Positions 1 to 11,180 of a DNA stretch of 31,205 bases are shown one piece after another (position 1 is the first letter of the stretch; every line of letters begins with the position of its first letter). A model generated the notes under the pieces. That model worked only from the letters and a program-made list of their open reading frames with translations. It had not been told where the DNA came from and did not search any database. Location: positions 1 through 31,205 of the IMG/VR virus record IMGVR_UViG_3300044750_000007; one strand, 5' to 3'. The DNA comes from a virus (Duplodnaviria; Caudoviricetes). The position numbers were made by a program, and so were the translations under genes.

Positions 1-412
1 CGAGCCGCTTTTCTTGCCGGAGCACTTCGTCATCGCTCGGGATCGCTGCGATTTCCTGGTTCGCAATTGCGATCAGTGTTTCGACCTCCTGAACTTTCCT
101 CTTTGCTTCAGAGGCTAATAATTCTGAAGCGCCAACATCCGATTTGTGTACCAGACCTTGATCAAATAATTCCCTCGTTTGGGCGAGGCTGGCTTCCGCC
201 CTAACCACTGACTTTTGGTAAGAGGCCATGAGTTTCTTCAGGCTGTCTCGGTAGGCTTCTGAGGCTTCGCGGAACTGGTGAACAAGATCGACCATTTCCG
301 AGTGAGGGTGTGGTGCCGTTGATAAGGGCGCCTTCGTTTGCATCGCGTCCGGCAAACGGCCGGAAGTGGACGTGAAAATGAAACACGCAAAGATGACCGC
401 GAGAAGCTTCAT
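1..412 (-). CDS. Secreted coiled-coil protein, runs off the left edge (not in the ORF track)
   Basis: Hand-translated from ATG at 412 after RBS AGGAGGGAG: MKLLAVIFACFIFTSTSG...EAYRDSLKKLMASYQKSVVRAEASLAQTRELFDQGLVHKSDV...; signal-peptide-like N-terminus, amphipathic helices, no stop before position 1. Confidence 0.85.
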   Translation of the reverse strand, partial: MKLLAVIFACFIFTSTSGRLPDAMQTKAPLSTAPHPHSEMVDLVHQFREASEAYRDSLKKLMASYQKSVVRAEASLAQTRELFDQGLVHKSDVGASELLASEAKRKVQEVETLIAIANQEIAAIPSDDEVLRQEKRL

Positions 413-441
413 TGGTCCAATCTCCCTCCTAACGGCGCGGG

Positions 442-450
442 ACTATATCA
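442..450 (-). promoter_or_regulatory. Possible extended -10 promoter (TGa-TATAGT) for the leftmost gene
   Basis: Reverse complement of ACTATATCA, about 30 nt upstream of ATG 412. Confidence 0.4.
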
Positions 451-527
451 CAGGCGATAAATCTTTGGGTAGATTCTTGACCGATAAAAGGCAGTTAGGG
501 TAGTAAAGCTTAGTGGTGCGGTGGGCC

Positions 528-556
528 GTGAGCAGTGAGCAGTGAGCAGTGAGCAG
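528..556. repeat. Heptamer tandem repeat (GTGAGCA)x4
   Basis: Four exact copies read directly. Confidence 0.95.
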
Positions 557-574
557 AAGGGAAGCGGGGGGCGA

Positions 575-631
575 TCCGAGAAAATAGAATTAGGCCTTGC
601 AAATTCTGGAGGTCGCTAGTATTTTCTCGGA
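575..631. repeat. Perfect 12-bp inverted repeat TCCGAGAAAATA/TATTTTCTCGGA with a 33-nt spacer
   Basis: Arms at 575-586 and 620-631; inner GAATT/AATTC pair at 587-591 and 602-606. Confidence 0.85.
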
Positions 632-747
632 GCGAAAATGTTGTCGGGTCTCCCAAAGCACAACTCGGCCAGACACACTTCCACACGGGCTCCAAGGAAT
701 ACACTCCCCAAAGCGTTAAAGACTTAGTGGTAAACCGGCGGCTTTGC

Positions 748-963
748 TCAGAATAGGAAGAAGAGCAGATCGATGGCCAGTCCGTCCCAAATCCCACCGC
801 CAACATCGTCAGCCTTTTCCGAGGTGTTCATAGCTGACTGCCCGCCCGCAGGGGGTGGCGGCGGTTGCGGCGCGCCTGGCATCTGCACTTCGCCGGCGAG
901 ACAAGTGGCGGTCAGCGCCAGCACAAGGACCATAGAGGCGAACAGAGCGCGTAGGTTTTTCAC
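748..963 (-). CDS. 71-aa secreted peptide precursor (signal peptide, GEVQMPG, Pro-rich linker, hydrophobic C-terminal tail)
   Basis: GTG at 963 with AAAGGAG 9 nt upstream; MKNLRALFASMVLVLALTATCLA|GEVQMPGAPQPPPPPAGG...IWDGLAIDLLFFLF. Confidence 0.85.
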   Translation of the reverse strand: MKNLRALFASMVLVLALTATCLAGEVQMPGAPQPPPPPAGGQSAMNTSEKADDVGGGIWDGLAIDLLFFLF

Positions 964-1041
964 GGGAGGTTCTCCTTTGGAAGTCGGGTTTATAGTTCTC
1001 TGGTTAAAGCGCGGGAGCGGTTTACCAGTTTTTCGGTTAAG

Positions 1042-2391
1042 TTGCAAATCTCTTTTAGCGGTGCACACTTGAAGGCTCAACCTCCCACTACTCTGCAACT
1101 CCCACGAGAGGCCAACTCCAAGGCCTCGGTCTGCGCCCGTGCGGCCCTCCGGCATGAAGAGCTTGGGGAATTTGACCGAGCGGTCGAATCACTACTACCG
1201 TTCTGGGGCGGTCCGGGCTACGAACCTCAGGTAGCAGACCTGAACGCCGCCGCCGCGGCCGCAATCTTGTTGCGCGCCGGCAGTCTAACGGCTTGGGTTG
1301 GCAGCCAGCGTCAGGTCGAGGGTTGGCAGGAAAAGGCAAAGGACCTGCTTACGCGCAGCGCCGATGCTTTTGCATCGCTGGGTGACTTCAAGGGACAGGC
1401 AGATGCGGAGAAACACCTGGGCACTTGCTACTGGCGGGCCGGCGCATTTTCAGAGGCACGGATTGTCTTCAGCCAGGCGATCGCGCGAGTGGGCCGCGGC
1501 GGCAGTGAATGGATGGCGCTGCAGCTCGACCATGCGATGGTTGATTTTTCTGAGGGAGCCTATCGAAAGTGTCTGGAGGTCTTCGCGAGTTTGGAGGAAG
1601 CAATCGCCGGCGCGGCCGACCTGCTGAAGGCGCGCTTTCACAACGGTCGCGGCATCGCACACAAGAGACTCGGCGAGAATGAGGCGGCAATAATTGAGCT
1701 CACCGCCGCGGCCTACTACCTGGAACGGGCCGGCCACGAACGCAACCAACTGATAACCGAGATTAATCTTGGGGTGGTCATGGGAGAATCTGGGCAGTTC
1801 CGTGAAGCGCACGATCGTTTGAACCGCGCCGATCGTCTCGCGGCGAGGTTGCGAGATCGGGTGCACCTGGCCCACTCGAAAGACTCCCGCGCGCGCGTAT
1901 ACCTGGCCGAAAAGAACTACGAAGCCGCGGAGGCAGCAGCGCGCGAGTCGGTCGGAATACTTGAGCGCGGAGACGAGTACGCGTTGTTGGTGGATTCGTT
2001 GCTAACTCAGGCAAGGGTACTGGCGAGGTTGAAAGATCCGCAACGCTTGGGTGTTTACGCGAGAGCGCACGAGCTAGCGGTTGAGAGAGTTGGTACAGAA
2101 CGGGCGGCGGCGATCGCTCTGGAGCTTCTCGGCGAGTTGGCCGGAGACGCATGTGTGAGCGGTTGCCTGACCCTTGAGGAAGCGAAGCACGCGTTTGAAA
2201 GCAGCATCCTGCGAGTGGCCTTGTCGCAGACAAACACCACGACGGAAGCGGCGCTCAAGCTCGGCATGCCGCAACAGACTTTAAGTTGGATACTTCAGAA
2301 CCATCACCCCGAATTGAAAACGAAGGCGCGCAAACCGAGGCGTCTGCGGCTCACCAAACGAAGGCACGACCAAAACACCAAAGCCAACTAA
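1042..2391 (+). CDS. TPR-repeat protein with C-terminal Fis-type HTH; putative peptide-sensing transcription regulator
   Basis: TPR-like repeats (HLGTCYWRAGAFSEA, NGRGIAHKRLGENEAA, NLGVVMGESGQFREA, SRARVYLAEKNYEAA); C-terminal LEEAKHAFESSILRVALSQT..TEAALKLGMPQQTLSWIL fits Fis/HTH_8. Start uncertain (TTG 1042 or 1069). Confidence 0.88.
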   Translation: MQISFSGAHLKAQPPTTLQLPREANSKASVCARAALRHEELGEFDRAVESLLPFWGGPGYEPQVADLNAAAAAAILLRAGSLTAWVGSQRQVEGWQEKAKDLLTRSADAFASLGDFKGQADAEKHLGTCYWRAGAFSEARIVFSQAIARVGRGGSEWMALQLDHAMVDFSEGAYRKCLEVFASLEEAIAGAADLLKARFHNGRGIAHKRLGENEAAIIELTAAAYYLERAGHERNQLITEINLGVVMGESGQFREAHDRLNRADRLAARLRDRVHLAHSKDSRARVYLAEKNYEAAEAAARESVGILERGDEYALLVDSLLTQARVLARLKDPQRLGVYARAHELAVERVGTERAAAIALELLGELAGDACVSGCLTLEEAKHAFESSILRVALSQTNTTTEAALKLGMPQQTLSWILQNHHPELKTKARKPRRLRLTKRRHDQNTKAN

Positions 2392-2415
2392 AAAGAACGG
2401 GAAAGGATAACGGTC

Positions 2416-2640
2416 ATGAGAAGAAGCCTGCTCACGCTAGCGATTGTCGTTGGAATACTAGTCACCTCTGGATGGGCTCAGCAATCCAGGGTAACATGGG
2501 AATACAAGACTGAAGGGAAATGTTCCGATGAGAAACGTATAAACGCTCTTGGCGCTGAAGGTTGGGAGCTAGCAGGCTTCACGTCAACTGAGTCCGGCTT
2601 GGGTGGAAACTGGCGTTGCATTTTCAAGCGCCCGAAATAA
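2416..2640 (+). CDS. Small secreted DUF4177-like protein
   Basis: Signal peptide then WEYK...INALGAEGWEL...FKRP; RBS AAAGGA. Confidence 0.8.
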   Translation: MRRSLLTLAIVVGILVTSGWAQQSRVTWEYKTEGKCSDEKRINALGAEGWELAGFTSTESGLGGNWRCIFKRPK

Positions 2641-2655
2641 GCCAGAGCCAAACCT

Positions 2656-3144
2656 TTAAGCCCGCCTTTTCGACTCCGCAGAAGTCTTAGCTGTTTGCTC
2701 TTCCTCTTCGTCCGCCTCGTAAAGCTTAAATAATAATTGCAGTTGTTCCAGGTCGTTTGCGCCCATCGTGCGGTACTGACCGAACAGATGCTGGCCGTAA
2801 GCTATCAGCGCGTCGACGATGAGGCGGTGAAGTGTTTCCTCGAAGTTTTCCTTTGAGCCATCAGCAATCTTTTGGACTATCTGACGTTCCGTTTCGGTAA
2901 GAAAACGAAACGGATCACGGTCTGCCTCCCCCTCGCCAGTGAGGAGCCAGTGAAGGGAACACTTAGTCAGCGCCGAAATTTTCTTTAGGTTGTCGAGGTT
3001 GGGTAGACTCTCACCCTTGATGTAGGCGCTGACACTTGCGTCAGAAATTCCTAGTTTTCCCGCAATTGTGGCCTGATTATCCCCGCCGAACGCTTCTTTC
3101 AGACGTTCGCCAAAGTCCCTGCCCGTCTGGCTCTTAGCCACCAC
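2656..3144 (-). CDS. CI-like XRE-family repressor without a peptidase S24 domain
   Basis: FGERLKEAFGGDNQATIAGKLGISDASVSAYIKGESLPNLDNLKKISALTKCSLHWLLTGEG is a classic HTH_3. Likely start is GTG 3144 or 3141; the 3252 start overlaps the divergent promoter and gene. Confidence 0.88.
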   Translation of the reverse strand: MVAKSQTGRDFGERLKEAFGGDNQATIAGKLGISDASVSAYIKGESLPNLDNLKKISALTKCSLHWLLTGEGEADRDPFRFLTETERQIVQKIADGSKENFEETLHRLIVDALIAYGQHLFGQYRTMGANDLEQLQLLFKLYEADEEEEQTAKTSAESKRRA

Positions 3145-3156
3145 TGAATATTTCTC

Positions 3157-3185
3157 TTGACACGTCTTAGGCGTTACCTTAATAT
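3157..3185 (+). promoter_or_regulatory. Sigma70-type early (PR-like) promoter TTGACA-N17-TAATAT
   Basis: Perfect -35 at 3157-3162, 17-bp spacer, -10 at 3180-3185, upstream of the Ner/Cro-like gene. Confidence 0.75.
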
Positions 3186-3199
3186 CCGCGCCATCATCG

Positions 3200-3217
3200 T
3201 TACGAGATAACTCGTAA
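3200..3217. promoter_or_regulatory. Operator-like palindrome TTACGAG-ATAA-CTCGTAA
   Basis: Perfect 7-bp inverted repeat just downstream of the PR-like promoter. Confidence 0.65.
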
Positions 3218-3233
3218 GCGCCTGCAACATACC

Positions 3234-3581
3234 ATGGATCACGCATCGCCATTAGAAAAAGGTTGGACCTCGGTGGGACTGCCGCCGTCGCAGATTCGGG
3301 CGTTGATTGGGATTCGGGATGAGGATTTGAACGAGGTAGGGAGGGTGATTGAGGAAGAGCCGAACCGCATCACGGAGACCATCAACCGTTACAAGGGGCG
3401 GCGCAATGAACGAATCCGGGTGAAGCTGGCGGCTCACGTAAACCTTCCCTACAAGAAGCTCTGGGGCGAGGAGCCCGTTGGTAAAAGCAACGAAAGAGAC
3501 GGCCGAGGCGGCGGCGTGAAATCCAACTACGCCGCAAAGCCTAGCACGGCGCCGCGGGGTATGAACCAGACCGAGCGATAA
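3234..3581 (+). CDS. Ner/Cro-like HTH regulator
   Basis: Divergent from the repressor; PPSQIRALIG...LNEVGRVI...ITETINR...IRVKLAAHVNLPYKKLWG resembles Mu Ner. Confidence 0.7.
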   Translation: MDHASPLEKGWTSVGLPPSQIRALIGIRDEDLNEVGRVIEEEPNRITETINRYKGRRNERIRVKLAAHVNLPYKKLWGEEPVGKSNERDGRGGGVKSNYAAKPSTAPRGMNQTER

Positions 3582-3630
3582 ATTTTTAGGGCAACAAAAC
3601 TTTTAACCTTTGAAGGGAGACTTAAATCGA

Positions 3631-3921
3631 ATGCCGAAACCTCAACGAGAGCGTTGCGTCCTGGTAACAACCGCGCACCGCGGTGTGTTCTGCGGGTACG
3701 CGACCGAAACAGGGGGCGAGACCATCAAGCTGCGAGAGGCTCGTCTCTGTTTGTACTGGTCTGCAGATGTTAAGGGGTTCATGGGCCTCGCGGCAGGTGG
3801 GCCATCTGCGAAGTGCCGTGTTGGCCCACCTGCGGATATTGAGTTGCGCAGTATCACCGCCGTCCTCGAAGTAACTCCGGAGGCTGAAGCAAAATGGAAA
3901 ACCCAACCCTGGTCAGTGTAG
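3631..3921 (+). CDS. DUF6948-like phage protein
   Basis: VLVTTAHRGVFCGY...IKLREARLCLYWS...GLAAGGP; RBS AAGGGAG before ATG 3631. Confidence 0.75.
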   Translation: MPKPQRERCVLVTTAHRGVFCGYATETGGETIKLREARLCLYWSADVKGFMGLAAGGPSAKCRVGPPADIELRSITAVLEVTPEAEAKWKTQPWSV

Positions 3922-4598
3922 AAGACGGTTGCGGTTCCGGTTGCGGTTCCGGTGACGGTTCCGGTGACGGTTACGGTGACGGTTACGGTTCCGGTGACGG
4001 TTACGGTGACGGTTACGGTTACGGTTACGGTTACGGTTCCGGTTACGGTTACGGTGACGGTTACGGTTCCGGTTACGGTTACGGTTCCGGTGACGGTTAC
4101 GGTGACGGTTACGGTTCCGGTTACGGTTACGGTGACGGTTACGGTGACGGTTACGGTTCCGGTTACGGTTCCGGCGACGGTTACGGTGACGGTTACGGTT
4201 CCGGTTACGGTTCCGGCGACGGTTACGGTGACGGTTCCGGCGACGGTTATTGGGTTGCCGTATTTGAAACCCACTACTCAACCCTGCCGCGAGTTCGCGA
4301 GCTCTGCTCTCAGGATCCAACCATTGCGTTTGCTTACTGGAGGTCGGATAGGAGTGGCCGAGCATGCAATGGCGGGAACTCTAAAGAGTCGGCCCGACCG
4401 GGCCTGATTGAACAGATTTCCGGTCCGCTCGAGATTTGTACGCGCCGCGCGTTACACGCCACGGTCGAGCCGACAAGTTACAAAGGCGATCGCCTTTGGG
4501 TTGTCGCGCTATCCGGGGAGATCCAAATCAGCGGTAACAAAGTCGGCGCCCTCAAGCGGGAGATAATCTGTGAAGTCACGGAAAGGAAGGCTGCCTGA
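3894..4598 (+). CDS. Gly-X (GY/GD/GS) repeat protein with a globular C-terminal domain
   Basis: GGAGG before ATG 3894; 54 Gly-X dipeptides; stop overlaps the next ATG (TGATG). Confidence 0.8.
   Translation: MENPTLVSVEDGCGSGCGSGDGSGDGYGDGYGSGDGYGDGYGYGYGYGSGYGYGDGYGSGYGYGSGDGYGDGYGSGYGYGDGYGDGYGSGYGSGDGYGDGYGSGYGSGDGYGDGSGDGYWVAVFETHYSTLPRVRELCSQDPTIAFAYWRSDRSGRACNGGNSKESARPGLIEQISGPLEICTRRALHATVEPTSYKGDRLWVVALSGEIQISGNKVGALKREIICEVTERKAA
3927..4250 (+). repeat. Hexamer tandem array, 54 units of GGTTAC/GGTGAC/GGTTCC and variants
   Basis: 324 nt read directly. Confidence 0.95.
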
Positions 4599-4962
4599 TG
4601 TCAACAGCTTCCCCCGCTGAACTCACTTACGAACAGGCGCGCGATCTGGCTGCTAAGGCAATCGCAATTCCGCATGACAACTCTTTCATTCTCGACTTCC
4701 TGGTTGACGAACACATTGGCGAGTTGGCGAGTGTGCTCATTCAGCACTGCGACGAGCTGAAGTTCATCGAACAGTTTTCGGTCACTTACCTCTGGAAGCG
4801 CACGGGAGGCAAGTCAAAGGACCGGCGCACTCTGGGCAAGTGTATTAAAGACCGCCGGACTGGTCAATTTCTTCGGGCGCACCGACTACGTCATTTTGGC
4901 TGGCGGCGGACCACTGCTCACACATCCACAACGATTTTCTCAAAGACCGACGCCGCCTTTAA
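4598..4962 (+). pseudogene. Phage putative metallopeptidase, doubly frameshifted and truncated
   Basis: Removing one A (4847-4849) and one T (4894-4897) restores YLWKRTGGKSKDRRTLGKCIKTAGLVNFFGRTDYVIWLAADHC; TAA at 4960-4962 comes before any HExxH. Confidence 0.72.
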
Positions 4963-4982
4963 TTTTCTCAGGGGGAGGGGAA

Positions 4983-5570
4983 ATGTCCGCAGCCTTATCA
5001 CAGCCACAGCCTGTCCAGCCACCATTGATCGAAGAGCCACCGCGAGCGTGCCCGCTGTGCCCGGCGGCCTTTGGTGAACAACCTGCGACCTCGTTCGGCA
5101 TCTGTCGCGGGCGAACTGATGGCCGGAACCTTTACTGCAAGAGCTGCATTCGAAAGAAGGTGACGGGCCAACGCCGGGAACTCAAGGAATACCGCGCGCG
5201 GCGCAAGCAAGCCGCAAAGCCAACGATGTTGGTCGGAGAGCACCTCTGCCTTGTCCCTCGGCAAACTCCCTCCTCGCCAGTTGAGAGAGTGAGAGACGCG
5301 ATTCGCAGGGGCGCGCGCACGCAGAGGGCGATCCGTCAGAAGACGAGGCTGGGCCCTGACGAAATCGGGCTCGCGTTGGCCGAGTTGATGCTTTGGACGC
5401 GTGAGGTTACAACCCGCTTCGTTGGCGAAAGCCGGCACTACGTCATCAACGACCCGCAAGTGCTACCGCTGCGCGATACCGAGGGTTTAGACCTGCCATC
5501 GAGAAAGCCGGACGTCCTTGCCTCTGCCAGCCAGCCGGCAGAGGTGGCGAGCGAAAGGAAGGTGAGCTGA
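4983..5570 (+). CDS. Zn-finger (CPLC...F...DGRNLYCKSC) plus HTH-like hypothetical protein
   Basis: RBS GGGGGAGGGG before ATG 4983; coupled to the next gene. Confidence 0.75.
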   Translation: MSAALSQPQPVQPPLIEEPPRACPLCPAAFGEQPATSFGICRGRTDGRNLYCKSCIRKKVTGQRRELKEYRARRKQAAKPTMLVGEHLCLVPRQTPSSPVERVRDAIRRGARTQRAIRQKTRLGPDEIGLALAELMLWTREVTTRFVGESRHYVINDPQVLPLRDTEGLDLPSRKPDVLASASQPAEVASERKVS

Positions 5571-5932
5571 TGTCCACGCCTGAAGAGAAATGCACGGTGG
5601 CGCGCCGGCTACTGCTCGAATTGGAAGCTCGCGACCAGCAAACGATCGCGCTGTTCAAGAAAGCCCTGGGTGAGATTGAAGAAGACGTGCGCGAGCTGCG
5701 GCGCGAGTCCGCCAAGCGCGACATGCAGATCTACACCGAAGCAGAGTTTGCGGCGCTGTTCAAAGTGAGCGAGTCGACGATGGCGCGTGAGCGGAAGGCC
5801 GGCCACATCCATCCGCTTGAGATGGGCCAGCACGTTGTTCGGTACTCGTCGCTGCAGCTTGAGCAGGCGCATGCAATTTTCGGTTCGAAGTTGAGGCTGG
5901 TCAAAAAGAAGAAGGAGCAGAGAGCGTCATGA
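5570..5932 (+). CDS. Excisionase-like HTH_17 DNA-binding protein with N-terminal coiled coil
   Basis: IYTEAEFAALFKVSESTMARERKAGHI...VVRYS. Confidence 0.75.
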   Translation: MSTPEEKCTVARRLLLELEARDQQTIALFKKALGEIEEDVRELRRESAKRDMQIYTEAEFAALFKVSESTMARERKAGHIHPLEMGQHVVRYSSLQLEQAHAIFGSKLRLVKKKKEQRAS

Positions 5933-6264
5933 CAAATCCCAACACAATCAGCCGGCGCTACGTTGTCGACACGAAAGGCACGGAGGTGCGTCCGTTCCGC
6001 GTTTACGACGCTCACAAGGGCACGGTCTTCATCTACACGGCCGATCGCGTGGTCGCCGAGCGCATGGCTGAAGAGTATGAGAAGCAGTGGCTACGTTCGA
6101 CCTGGTTGCGGCGCAACTGGCAGCGAGTGGCCAGGTGGCTGCGTTCGCTCTTCGCGAAGAAGCCAGCGCCCCGGCCGGCGGCGGCGCCGACGATACGCGA
6201 GCAGCGCGTGGAGTTTCTCGAGCGACTCTGCGAGAAAGCACGCGCTGAGACAGCCGGGCGATGA
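5929..6264 (+). CDS. Hypothetical phage protein
   Basis: ATGA overlaps at both ends; RBS AAGGAG. Confidence 0.75.
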   Translation: MTNPNTISRRYVVDTKGTEVRPFRVYDAHKGTVFIYTADRVVAERMAEEYEKQWLRSTWLRRNWQRVARWLRSLFAKKPAPRPAAAPTIREQRVEFLERLCEKARAETAGR

Positions 6265-8657: not shown

Positions 8658-11180
8658 TTGGACCATTCCGCATACCTCAGCTTCCTGGAAGGGAAAATCA
8701 AAGGCGCGAGTGGGCGCGCGGTGGCACCGTCTGCGTTGTCGACCGCCCATCCGTCCACTAAGCCGCACCAGCACGACAGCATAGACTGGGCCCTAAGTCG
8801 TGAAAGAGCATTGCTGGCTCTCTCGTTTGGGCTTGGCAAGACTCAGATTGAAACCGAAATCGCTCGCGCCCTCATCGTCGCAAATCCGGGCTCCAAGTTC
8901 TTAGTTGTGTCTCCGTTGGGAGTGAGGCATCAGTTCATCGACGAAGATGGCCCACGGCTGGCGGTGAACTGGAAATACGTCGACAGCGATCGCGCTGTCG
9001 ACAAGTCCGACTCCCCGTTTCTCATAACCAACTACGAGCGAGTTCGCGACGGCAACATCCGGCCGGCGAAGCACAACCTGGTGGGAGCAAGCTTGGACGA
9101 AGGATCCGTGCTGCGCAGCTTTGGTTCCAAAACTACACAGGTTTTCCGCGAGCGGTTCAGCCATCTTCAATACCGCTTTGTTGCCACGGCCACGCCTTCA
9201 CCAAACAACTACCGCGAGCTCATCTACTACGCCGACTTCCTCGGGATTATGGATACCGGACAGGCTCTAACACGATGGTTCAAGCGGAACACTGCGCAAG
9301 CAGGTGACCTGGTCCTGCATCCTCAGCACGAAGCAGACTTCTGGTTATGGGTGAGCACGTGGGCGCTGTTTCTCTACAGCCCGGCCGACATGGGTTACGA
9401 CGCTACCGGTTACGACTTACCGGAGCTGGACGTTCACTGGCACCGAGTTCCCGTTGATCACACCAGGGCTTTCAATCACATCGATAACCACGGCCAGCGC
9501 AAGCTTCTAATCAGCGCAGTCAAAGGCGTGAGCCAGTCTGCCAGGGAGAAGCGCGCCACCCTCCCGGCGCGAGTTGCCAAGGCGAAGGAAATCATTGCGA
9601 CGGCGCCGAATAAGAACTGGCTGTTATGGCACACGCTCGAGGATGAGCGGCGAGCTATTGAACAAGAGGTTCCGGAATCTGTTTCAGTCTACGGTTCGCT
9701 CGACCTTGAAATTCGCGAAGAGCGTGTTATCGCTTTTGCGAGGGGAAAGATTTCGAGACTCGCCACGAAGCCAGAGCTATCAGGATCGGGTTGCAACTTT
9801 CAGCACTACTGCCACTCCAACATCTTTGTTGGCGCTGACTATCGCTTCGAAGACTTCATCCAGGCAATTCACCGCACCAAGCGCTTTCAACAGAAACATC
9901 GCGTGCGAGTCGACATTATTTATGCCGAGAGCGAGCAGCCGATCGCGGACGCGCTAAGAAAGAAGTGGGCGCAACACGACCAGCTCGTTGAGCGCATGCG
10001 CGGAATCATCCGCAAGTACGGCTTAGACCACGGTTTGGTCAAGGAGGAGCTGAAGCGAAAGATAGGCATCGAGCGGGCGGAGGTGGCCGGCGAGAAGTTT
10101 CTGGCTGTTCACAACGACTGTGTGTTGGAGATGCCGAACGTTGCCGACAATTCGGTCGGGCTAATTCACACCTCAATCCCGTTTGGTAATCACTACGAAT
10201 ACACCACGAGCTACGAAGACTTCGGACACAACGACGATAACGCGCGATTCTTTGAGCAGATGGATTTCCTCATACCCGAGCTGCTGCGCGTATTGAAACC
10301 CGGGCGAGTTTGCGCGATCCACGTCAAGGACAGAATTCTTTACAGCCACCAGACGAAGTCCGGCCTGATGGAGGTCGACCCGTTCAGCGACCTGACGGTC
10401 CAGGCCTTCATAAAGCACGGTTTCTTGTACGAAGGGCGCCGGACAATAACCACCGACGTCGTCAGAGAAAACAGTTCGACCTACCGGCTGGGCTATACCG
10501 AAATGTCACGAGACGCAAGCAAGATGGGCAGCGGGCTGCCGGAATACCTGGTGCTATTTCGCAAGGCTCCGTCGCTCACAACAACCGCCAGAGCTGATGA
10601 GCCTGTAACGCGCGAGAAGGCTGACTACAGCCGCGGGCGCTGGCAGATAGACGCCAACGGATACTGGCGTAGCAACGGCGATGTGCTTGCCCCTTCCGAC
10701 TATGAAGGCAAGACCCGGTTCCTGATGGCCATGCTGCTCGCGAGTTCGCCGTACGACTTCGAAGCGCACGTCGCGCGACTTGATGAGTTGGGTCGCCGGG
10801 GCCAGTTGCCGGCGTCGTTTTTCTACGAGCCTCCGGAATCGAACAGTACCTGGGTGTGGGACGATGTGCAGTTGATGCGCTGCCTCAATTCATCCCAGAG
10901 CCGAAGACAGCAAGTGAATCACACCTGCCCGCTGCCTCTCGATATCGTTGAGCGGGTTATCAATCTCTATTCGAATCCCGGCGACATAGTGGCTGACCCA
11001 TTCGCCGGCATCTTCACCGTTCCTTACGTCGCAATTAAAAAGGGCCGCATCGGTTACGGCATCGAACTCAGCCAATCATACTTCAGTGATGGAGCGCGCT
11101 ATTGCAATGAGGCTGAAGCCGAAGTCTCAGTACCCACATTGTTCGATTTGATGGGCAAAGCGGCGGAGGCCGCCGCATAA
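8658..11180 (+). CDS. SNF2-like helicase / N4-N6 DNA methyltransferase fusion
   Basis: FGLGKT, LDEGS, TATPSPN, GSGCNFQ, QAIHRTKRFQQ; then TSIPF, RVLKPGR, HTCPLPLDIVERVINLYSNPGDIVADPFAGIFT. Confidence 0.92.
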   Translation: MDHSAYLSFLEGKIKGASGRAVAPSALSTAHPSTKPHQHDSIDWALSRERALLALSFGLGKTQIETEIARALIVANPGSKFLVVSPLGVRHQFIDEDGPRLAVNWKYVDSDRAVDKSDSPFLITNYERVRDGNIRPAKHNLVGASLDEGSVLRSFGSKTTQVFRERFSHLQYRFVATATPSPNNYRELIYYADFLGIMDTGQALTRWFKRNTAQAGDLVLHPQHEADFWLWVSTWALFLYSPADMGYDATGYDLPELDVHWHRVPVDHTRAFNHIDNHGQRKLLISAVKGVSQSAREKRATLPARVAKAKEIIATAPNKNWLLWHTLEDERRAIEQEVPESVSVYGSLDLEIREERVIAFARGKISRLATKPELSGSGCNFQHYCHSNIFVGADYRFEDFIQAIHRTKRFQQKHRVRVDIIYAESEQPIADALRKKWAQHDQLVERMRGIIRKYGLDHGLVKEELKRKIGIERAEVAGEKFLAVHNDCVLEMPNVADNSVGLIHTSIPFGNHYEYTTSYEDFGHNDDNARFFEQMDFLIPELLRVLKPGRVCAIHVKDRILYSHQTKSGLMEVDPFSDLTVQAFIKHGFLYEGRRTITTDVVRENSSTYRLGYTEMSRDASKMGSGLPEYLVLFRKAPSLTTTARADEPVTREKADYSRGRWQIDANGYWRSNGDVLAPSDYEGKTRFLMAMLLASSPYDFEAHVARLDELGRRGQLPASFFYEPPESNSTWVWDDVQLMRCLNSSQSRRQQVNHTCPLPLDIVERVINLYSNPGDIVADPFAGIFTVPYVAIKKGRIGYGIELSQSYFSDGARYCNEAEAEVSVPTLFDLMGKAAEAAA

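Follow-up and report, generated by a model that had tools for sequence, protein, structure and literature searches.

A divergent propeptide and receptor gene pair

The window analysed here, a complete virus record of 31,205 bp from a soil metagenome (IMG/VR record IMGVR_UViG_3300044750_000007), is by its gene content a genome fragment of a temperate, lambda-like phage. One DNA sequencing run contains 97% of the sampled words of the record, and no RNA run is listed for it. The fragment carries genes for a CI-like repressor, a cro-like protein, an excisionase-like helix-turn-helix (HTH) protein, a helicase-methylase, terminase, portal, capsid and tail proteins; its left end falls within a secreted-type open reading frame (ORF), and an integrase is not reached. 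Near this end, a small gene for a predicted exported propeptide diverges from a gene for a tetratricopeptide repeat (TPR) receptor with a C-terminal Fis-type DNA-binding domain. An earlier note, made from the sequence alone, took the pair for a phage communication module that could tune lysogeny to lysogen density. The receptor-propeptide cassette is real and appears to be undescribed. From sequence comparison we lean, by a little, towards reading it as a prophage-borne copy of a pair widespread in Pyrinomonadaceae, a peptide-sensing autoregulator possibly tied to the lysis/lysogeny switch.

The propeptide gene (748-963, minus strand) encodes 71 amino acids (aa) from a GTG start, with the Shine-Dalgarno sequence AGGAG (972-976) 8 nt upstream. 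A rule-based call of N-, h- and c-regions places a predicted Sec/signal peptidase I signal peptide at residues 1-23 (895-963), with a basic N-region, a hydrophobic h-region and C-L-A at positions -3 to -1. Ala occupies -1 in 99 of 102 relatives (the set is defined below), which backs the call. Next comes GEVQMPG (874-894), the predicted signal core, for which the family consensus is G-[DE]-[IMV]-x-T-[PG]-[GP]. The remainder (748-873) comprises a poly-Pro spacer, an acidic linker and a hydrophobic, Phe-ending C-terminal helix; in the window these appear as a Q-P6 linker and the tail LAIDLLFFLF, and the core is present once only. The earlier description of this gene, from its strong ribosome-binding site to its poly-Pro run, thus holds. 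Among the relatives, the mature chain has Gly within its first four residues in 97 of 102 precursors, a PPP run is found in 51 and a terminal Phe on a Leu-rich helix in 53. In 24 of 97 precursors their own core occurs again further along the chain, where 1.9 are expected using the cores of other precursors.

The proposal of a membrane-tethered precursor is weakened. The best 19-residue hydropathy of the tail is 1.35 in the window and reaches at least 1.6 in just 11 of the 102 relatives, in which the tail is typically amphipathic, and a transmembrane anchor was rejected on these values. A lipoprotein was rejected as well (lipobox in 0/102 relatives), as were the 135-aa frame at 748-1155 and other overlapping ORFs, since relatives begin at the equivalent of position 963. 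Pfam and NCBIfam returned no family for the window propeptide or four relatives; matches in the ESM Atlas, all below 0.9 and from Acidobacteriota, are a lead only.

The receptor ORF on the plus strand spans 1042-2391 and gives 449 aa when counted from its first TTG, the start from which a 78-bp intergenic gap had been stated. The TTG at 1069 is favoured by a database call (P0003, 440 aa) and by homolog alignment; the receptor would then occupy 1069-2391 and the gap would be 105 bp. A Shine-Dalgarno sequence is absent at both starts. The protein is predicted to be cytoplasmic, with no transmembrane stretch, and matches TPR_12 of Pfam (E 9e-12). Its AlphaFold model (pLDDT 89, 15-row alignment) consists of a TPR superhelix at residues 15-363 (1111-2157) and a three-helix domain at 369-411 (2173-2301), followed by a basic tail. 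We assign the latter to the Fis/NtrC type, in agreement with the earlier reading: Pfam scores HTH_8 in 62 of 77 aligned homologs, not on the window receptor itself; a profile search finds the ZraR/NtrC HTH (E 0.002, 0.009); and a fold search with the domain alone places Fis at ranks 1-14 (TM 0.61-0.68, rmsd 1.0-2.4, with weak E values of 0.5-1). The window receptor lacks AAA+ and receiver domains as well as GAFTGA. Longer family members have an AAA+-like middle, with Walker A in 14/102 and a GAFTGA-like motif in 1/102. A role as sigma-54 activator was rejected for the window copy because the protein has no AAA+ domain.

The expected fold resemblance to AimR, Rap, NprR and PlcR is there (Z 17-24), and is exceeded by that to LGN/Pins. 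The best fold matches are LGN, Pins and APPBP2 at Z of about 27 (Pins/LGN 27.2; Foldseek E 4e-9 for LGN/Pins), followed by RapI (23.6), the Rap of phage phi105 (23.4), NprR (20.1), PlcR (18.2) and AimR (17.3-17.4). By profile, NprR, RapI and RapJ reach E of about 1e-6, against 1e-15 to 1e-8 for kinesin light chain and LGN, and descent from RRNPP receptors is therefore unproven. AimR is not among the best 60 profile matches, and the AimR entries of Pfam, NCBIfam and PHROG do not match the receptor.

Linkage of the two genes in Acidobacteriota

A word-indexed protein search returned 23 relatives, ten of them of about 440 aa at 42-55% identity and the others longer, with receiver or sigma-54-type domains. 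Searching 50%-cluster representatives with a profile yielded 834 proteins at E <=1e-30, and a search of genome contigs confirmed 544 stretches, the best 80 of which serve here as genome loci. All of these 80 whose titles name a group are from Pyrinomonadaceae, Blastocatellia or Acidobacteriota, in line with the acidobacterial host that had been suggested, and we infer from sequence that the host of the window phage is a member of Pyrinomonadaceae. In three host-family genomes the matches number 17, 18 and 10, a count that takes in fragments and weak ones. When the phylum was sampled evenly, matches at E 1e-60 turned up in 9 of 301 genomes, with five candidates scored in each; the family therefore occupies no more than a small part of the phylum. 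A viral scan with the single window protein found no relatives.

The pairing itself was examined at 116 distinct receptors, 8 of which were dropped for having less than 600 nt upstream. A divergent small ORF with a signal peptide lies beside 103 of the remaining 108; one pick (L103) proved by eye to be an unrelated regulator, leaving 102/108 compared with 24/344 control ORFs in the same loci. Under a strict rule on motif and tail the figures are 85/108 and 0/344. Receptor homologues thus do have adjacent peptide genes, as had been predicted, and the pairing is not a matter of chance. Tandem arrays of at least two receptor-peptide cassettes with differing cores occur at host genome loci L022, L113 and L119/L121.

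Receptor groove and peptide core vary together

Co-variation was measured by corrected mutual information in 63 pairs with receptor identity below 70%. The groove was preset as 42 of 365 columns from the TPR register, using the general TPR consensus. The five strongest pairs, 199-core 2, 160-core 4, 119-core 6, 192-core 5 and 119-core 7, all join a groove column to a core position. Among the 20 best-scoring core pairs, twelve involve groove columns, as against one of 20 for the tail and two of 20 for the signal peptide; tail and signal-peptide columns show no groove preference in the 63 pairs, and none of 5,000 random column sets matched the groove mean. The C-terminal tail was rejected as ligand on its one pair in 20. 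The paired residues make chemical sense (Lys with Asp, Arg with Glu, aromatic 119 with Gly), and their order is antiparallel. In the window the putative groove residues are T119, F160, N192, K199, N233 and D272, and F160 with Gln and T119 with Pro fit the pattern.

Independent contrasts were drawn on trees built minus the groove columns, all of them FastTree trees. Basic 199 with acidic core 2 changed in the same direction in 7.6 of 10 pairs and in the opposite direction in none (median p 0.008); 199 R/E gave p 0.004, aromatic 119 with Gly at core 6 p 0.03 and basic 160 p 0.03. Overall, five of seven contrasts hold in independent pairs (median p 0.004-0.03). When all columns were scanned, 119 was unrivalled for Gly at core 6 (0.89, next 0.34); in single-residue splits of that scan, 199 fell outside the top eight for the acidic class. 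Receptor and peptide do co-vary, as the earlier note had asked of a true pair.

Several points weigh against taking the core for the ligand. The groove columns derive from the TPR register, not from a measured complex; the contrast pairs were picked after the co-variation result had been seen; and two of the seven contrasts were not significant (hydrophobic 160, p 0.5; N192/Thr, p 0.25). K199 of the window faces Glu, a rarer match (2/63, compared with 19 for K/Asp), and five of 102 precursors have no Gly in their first four mature residues. We nevertheless consider it very probable, on this comparative evidence, that the core is the ligand of the receptor and lies antiparallel in its groove.

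Regulatory sites in and around the cassette

A dyad, TTTACC-N8-GGTTAA (1021-1040), is a candidate receptor operator, and TATAAA at 989-994 (minus strand) may be the -10 box of the peptide promoter. Of 102 intergenic regions in the family, 35 contain the dyad GCAA-N6-TTGC, where 0.2 are expected, and a -10 box lies 16-18 nt past its right arm in 40 of 72, compared with 0-10 at control offsets. In the relatives the peptide-side arm behaves as the -35 element of the peptide promoter. Phages of the clade have a homologous dyad with altered arms, of which L091 holds two copies. Two features count against the window site: its -10 box is separated from the dyad arm by 27 bp, a distance that is 17 bp in relatives, and the position weight matrix of the family scores the dyad below cut-off. 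Given this 10-bp displacement and low score, the dyad of the window rests on alignment with relatives. The left arm was rejected as a -35 element for the receptor, being too near the start codon.

Beyond the peptide gene, a non-coding element at 597-747 has the same place in 101 family loci, often with a GC-rich hairpin. It contains a conserved sigma70-like promoter, TTGCAA-17-TATTTT (597-625, plus strand), which would read antisense into the peptide gene towards the receptor, and a conserved motif, CCAGACACAC (669-678, plus strand), some 70 nt past the peptide stop codon. A receptor-strand promoter past the peptide stop is found at 38 of 101 loci, versus 6 on the opposite strand and 4.8 in shuffled sequence, and the motif GACACAC at 36, versus 3.2. 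Promoter and motif are also present in a host-like copy (L145, genome G643), so the element moves with the cassette. It may serve as the promoter of the receptor, with transcription crossing the peptide gene in antisense, or drive a small RNA. Rfam has no match in window 380-1100, the consensus fold of 630-750 from three sequences is weak with an unfavourable covariation term, and folding z-scores at 28 loci average -0.4 on one strand and -0.3 on the other, which does not support a conserved RNA structure.

Similar geometry recurs at the early promoter of the phage. A PR-like promoter, TTGACA-17-TAATAT (3157-3185, plus strand), serves the cro-like gene (3234-3581), and a perfect dyad, TACGA-N6-TCGTA (3201-3216), begins 16 nt after its -10 box. 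A 5-N6-5 dyad stands at exactly this distance in three of three phages (window 3201-3216, L090 4301-4316, L091 3919-3934; background 1.38 per kb), and both arms change in matched fashion. In geometry it matches the cassette dyad, but a Cro-like protein, which we take to be Ner-like, or CI is a simpler owner than the receptor. In L005, a phage with a distant receptor beside CI, an exact copy of the host-family dyad GCAA-N6-TTGC lies in the CI-cro region (10408-10423).

A block conserved between the window (421-470) and its equivalents in L006 and L090 has a leftward TATAGT box with no clear -35, ahead of a cargo gene and the integrase, and also a rightward TTGAC box. It is possibly an activator-dependent integrase promoter.

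The cassette in prophages

The exact start of the CI-like repressor gene (2656-3141, minus strand) is not fixed. The receptor stop lies 264 bp from the end of this ORF at 2656, close to the repressor gene as the earlier note had it. Within the interval sits a 74-aa secreted-type cargo gene (2416-2640, plus strand; DUF4177 or Sp36-like, both below cut-offs) that is missing from that place in three related phages, L090, L091 and L006. L090 and L091 are IMG/VR proviruses, 57% and 100% complete. In all three, the integrase is followed by one or two cargo genes, then by the peptide and receptor genes and, tail to tail with the latter, by CI, so the cassette lies inside prophage DNA, between integrase and CI in these relatives. 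A pair that had nothing to do with the phage, being host sequence to the left of attL or the product of an assembly join, would suit a window that stops before any integrase and a family that is mostly chromosomal. We regard this as extremely unlikely, given that the integrase stands outside the cassette in the three phages, that the window shares their flanking non-coding blocks and a CI N-terminus 86% identical to that of L090, and that contigs of a source-like sequencing run cover 1-6000 at even depth (7.6, 7.1, 6.6) with no joint.

The four phage receptors are 43-56% identical, and their cores differ: GEVQMPG in the window, GDMPTDI, GDVQTPG in L006, and one extended form. More distant receptors in other viral contigs stand beside CI (L005), an integrase (L003) or a Mu-type portal gene (L004); the L005 lineage is unrelated to that of the window and reached its CI-adjacent place independently.

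Unrelated secreted-type cargo genes occupy the integrase-CI interval phage by phage (window 2-412 and 2416-2640, L090 1255-1863, L006 1066-1512, L148 5030-5992).

Proposed function and its alternatives

We suspect that the small gene yields an exported propeptide whose seven-residue N-terminal core, GEVQMPG, would be cut free, taken back into the cell and bound by the TPR groove. Signal peptidase would create the Gly N-terminus, the poly-Pro run would halt trimming from the C side, and the Phe-ending tail could be a handle for processing or export. In the groove the core would run antiparallel, with core 2 at K199, core 4 at F160, core 5 at N192 and core 6-7 at T119. The signal probably passes out of the cell and is taken up again by an Opp/Dpp-type importer, thereby reporting the density of carriers of the same code; family-5 peptide-binding proteins number 4-5 per genome in five of five host-family genomes. 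Binding would switch the Fis-type domain on or off at the dyad over the peptide promoter, and it seems likely that a receptor dimer binds 1021-1040 and so autoregulates the cassette. The receptor mRNA probably begins at the 597-625 promoter and would run antisense across the peptide gene, like the overlapping antisense transcripts of prgX/prgQ. The least secure step, which we consider doubtful, is that the output reaches the lysis/lysogeny switch, via leftward transcription to the integrase or via the PR-leader dyad.

A role in lysis/lysogeny is plausible, and the earlier claim that the pair tunes lysogeny is nonetheless weakened by the wider family, in which most copies are chromosomal, with a CI-like neighbour at 0 of 80 genome loci and an integrase at 3 of 80. 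The nearest tree relatives, P0007 and P0026 (FastTree, 96), adjoin host-type genes: one a glycosyltransferase-like gene (a partial ORF by eye, with no Pfam match), the other FecR and PGA_cap genes, between which it lies. The second of them is from genome G643 and was the sole close-clade match in 401 family genomes (four candidates scored each). The integrase-CI interval is a variable cargo slot, and the cassette is absent from the fetched DNA of six of six phages with related integrases (6 of 11 loci examined); scans based on CI returned only the two known phages and one weak match without the cassette. The arms of the PR-leader dyad do not follow those of the cassette dyad within phages, and the proposed route does not address passage of the outer membrane.

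These observations suit an account with the same ligand-receptor chemistry in which the cassette is mobile cargo (a moron) that regulates itself, or taps or jams the paralogous peptide circuits of its host, and has no part in lysis/lysogeny. Host genomes with 10-18 matches offer such circuits, the flanking secreted-type genes vary from phage to phage just as the slot itself does, and the core GDVQTPG of L006 is found also in chromosomal precursors such as L030. Yet four phages retain the cassette hard against CI despite the divergence of their receptors and cores, and a second lineage became CI-adjacent on its own. We give the cargo account a real but minor chance. About equally tentative is the boldest form of the phage reading. 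In it, a phylum of Gram-negative type would have an arbitrium-like system that arose without RRNPP ancestry, by joining a Fis HTH to an LGN-type TPR; Pyrinomonadaceae phages would have captured the cassette from hosts more than once, given it private cores and used the receptor to set PR or integrase transcription by lysogen density.

Other alternatives concern the peptide rather than the phage. The presumed host is a diderm, and Sec export would stop at the periplasm; the conserved, amphipathic, Phe-ending tail could keep the product at a membrane, and in the loci read the cassette includes no gene for a dedicated exporter or protease. The peptide could accordingly be a private reporter of envelope or secretion state, sensed in the cell that made it and never between cells. 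We think this rather improbable, as diversified cores tracked by receptor changes, repeated cores and many paralogs are what private intercellular channels select for, and a stress reporter has no need of such code diversity. Still less credit goes to the idea that the small protein, in the membrane or secreted, is no ligand but a co-regulated target of an ordinary TPR-Fis regulator, with co-variation arising from shared ancestry. Neighbouring genes do have a common history, and generic TPR proteins (LGN, kinesin light chain) are nearest to the receptor in fold and profile; but the co-variation is limited to groove and core, is absent for tail and signal peptide, obeys charge and size logic and survives independent contrasts, which makes such a target very unlikely.

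Comparison with known peptide-signalling systems

The earlier view that the system is differently built stands for the C-terminal HTH; the divergent layout, though present, is not new in itself, as receptor and peptide genes of Rgg/SHP are arranged head to head with the operator at the peptide promoter. The cassette resembles Rgg-SHP in its head-to-head genes and in a candidate operator at the peptide promoter, and PrgX-prgQ in a probable antisense transcript. Those systems use PptAB export, an N-terminal HTH and a TPR-like fold without recognisable TPR sequence (PMC10075063, PMC9765709), whereas the cassette has a Sec-type signal, canonical TPRs and a C-terminal Fis HTH.

In general terms, RRNPP(A) systems combine a propeptide of 10-100 aa that has a Sec signal with a TPR receptor of 250-500 aa encoded by an adjacent gene (PMC10075063). 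The window has all five generic features, namely a 71-aa propeptide, a rule-based Sec signal, a TPR receptor of 440-449 aa, its predicted cytoplasmic location, and adjacent genes. RRNPP receptors, however, have an N-terminal effector (HTH or three-helix bundle) and a C-terminal TPR part (PMC9765709), where here the TPRs are at 15-363 and the HTH at 369-411. Their hosts are Bacillota or the mobile elements of these; here the loci are acidobacterial, and the phage host is deduced from them. By all sequence-level tests the cassette would work like an RRNPP system, yet by architecture and host it appears not to belong to that family.

Among phage systems, arbitrium (AimR-AimP-AimX of SPbeta and phi3T) is similar in having a phage TPR transcription factor beside a Sec-exported propeptide, near decision genes. 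The conserved non-coding stretch next to the peptide gene recalls aimX, and the AimR fold matches at Z 17.3-17.4. Arbitrium differs in its N-terminal HTH (PMC9765709) and co-oriented genes, against a C-terminal Fis-type domain and divergent genes, and in placing its signal at the C-terminus, where the candidate signal of the cassette opens the mature chain. Homology to AimR is absent, and the host phylum is Acidobacteriota. Rap-Phr, the pairs of phages phi105 and phi3T included, and NprR-NprX provide the best RRNPP fold matches and likewise have many paralogs per genome and copies on mobile elements. The mature NprX peptide is also not C-terminal (PMC10075063), and a phage Phr has duplicated pheromones within one precursor (PMC11343458). 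Rap and NprR have an N-terminal three-helix-bundle effector, of which there is none here; in the cassette family the output lies at the C-terminus, as a Fis HTH that stands by itself or is accompanied by a receiver domain or a sigma-54-type AAA+ domain.

Outside peptide signalling, the top structural matches, LGN/Pins (GPSM2) and kinesin light chain, bind extended peptides in their groove, but they are eukaryotic scaffolds without a DNA-binding domain or secreted ligand, at 13-17% identity. Enhancer-binding proteins (NtrC, ZraR, Fis) share the C-terminal three-helix HTH, and the longer family members are AAA+-like. Enhancer-binding proteins carry an AAA+ domain with GAFTGA, however, and a copy such as that of the window, without AAA+ or receiver domains, would not activate sigma-54 on its own.

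In PMC10075063, PMC9765709 and PMC13389391, one-component peptide signalling and phage arbitrium belong to Bacillota and the mobile elements of that phylum; the screen of the first covered Firmicutes genomes only, and the last, a 2026 review, still places phage peptide communication in Gram-positive hosts. We did not find a description of the receptor-propeptide family in the literature covered, from which subscription journals are mostly missing. If our reading is true, peptide communication extends to diderms, in the form of a family that abundant soil Acidobacteria carry in many copies per genome and that combines an inverted domain order with a groove-core code that can be read residue by residue. 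The question then arises how the signal passes two membranes, and short synthetic peptides would be handles on a poorly cultured group. Phage copies allow a test of whether viruses outside Bacillus count kin, and the predicted contacts (K199-core 2, F160-core 4, T119-core 6) and operator are precise enough for in vitro tests.

Other features of the window

A 7-nt unit, AGTGAGC, stands four times in tandem at 526-553 and is not present in the related phages; it is common elsewhere in the source-like sequencing run, where it coincides with a depth spike. Downstream of a DUF6948 gene, an ORF of 234 aa (3894-4598) contains a long Gly-Asp-Gly/Gly-Tyr-Gly repeat that assembles unevenly. The gene at 8658-11180 encodes 840 aa in which an SNF2-type helicase domain is fused to an N6/N4 DNA methylase.

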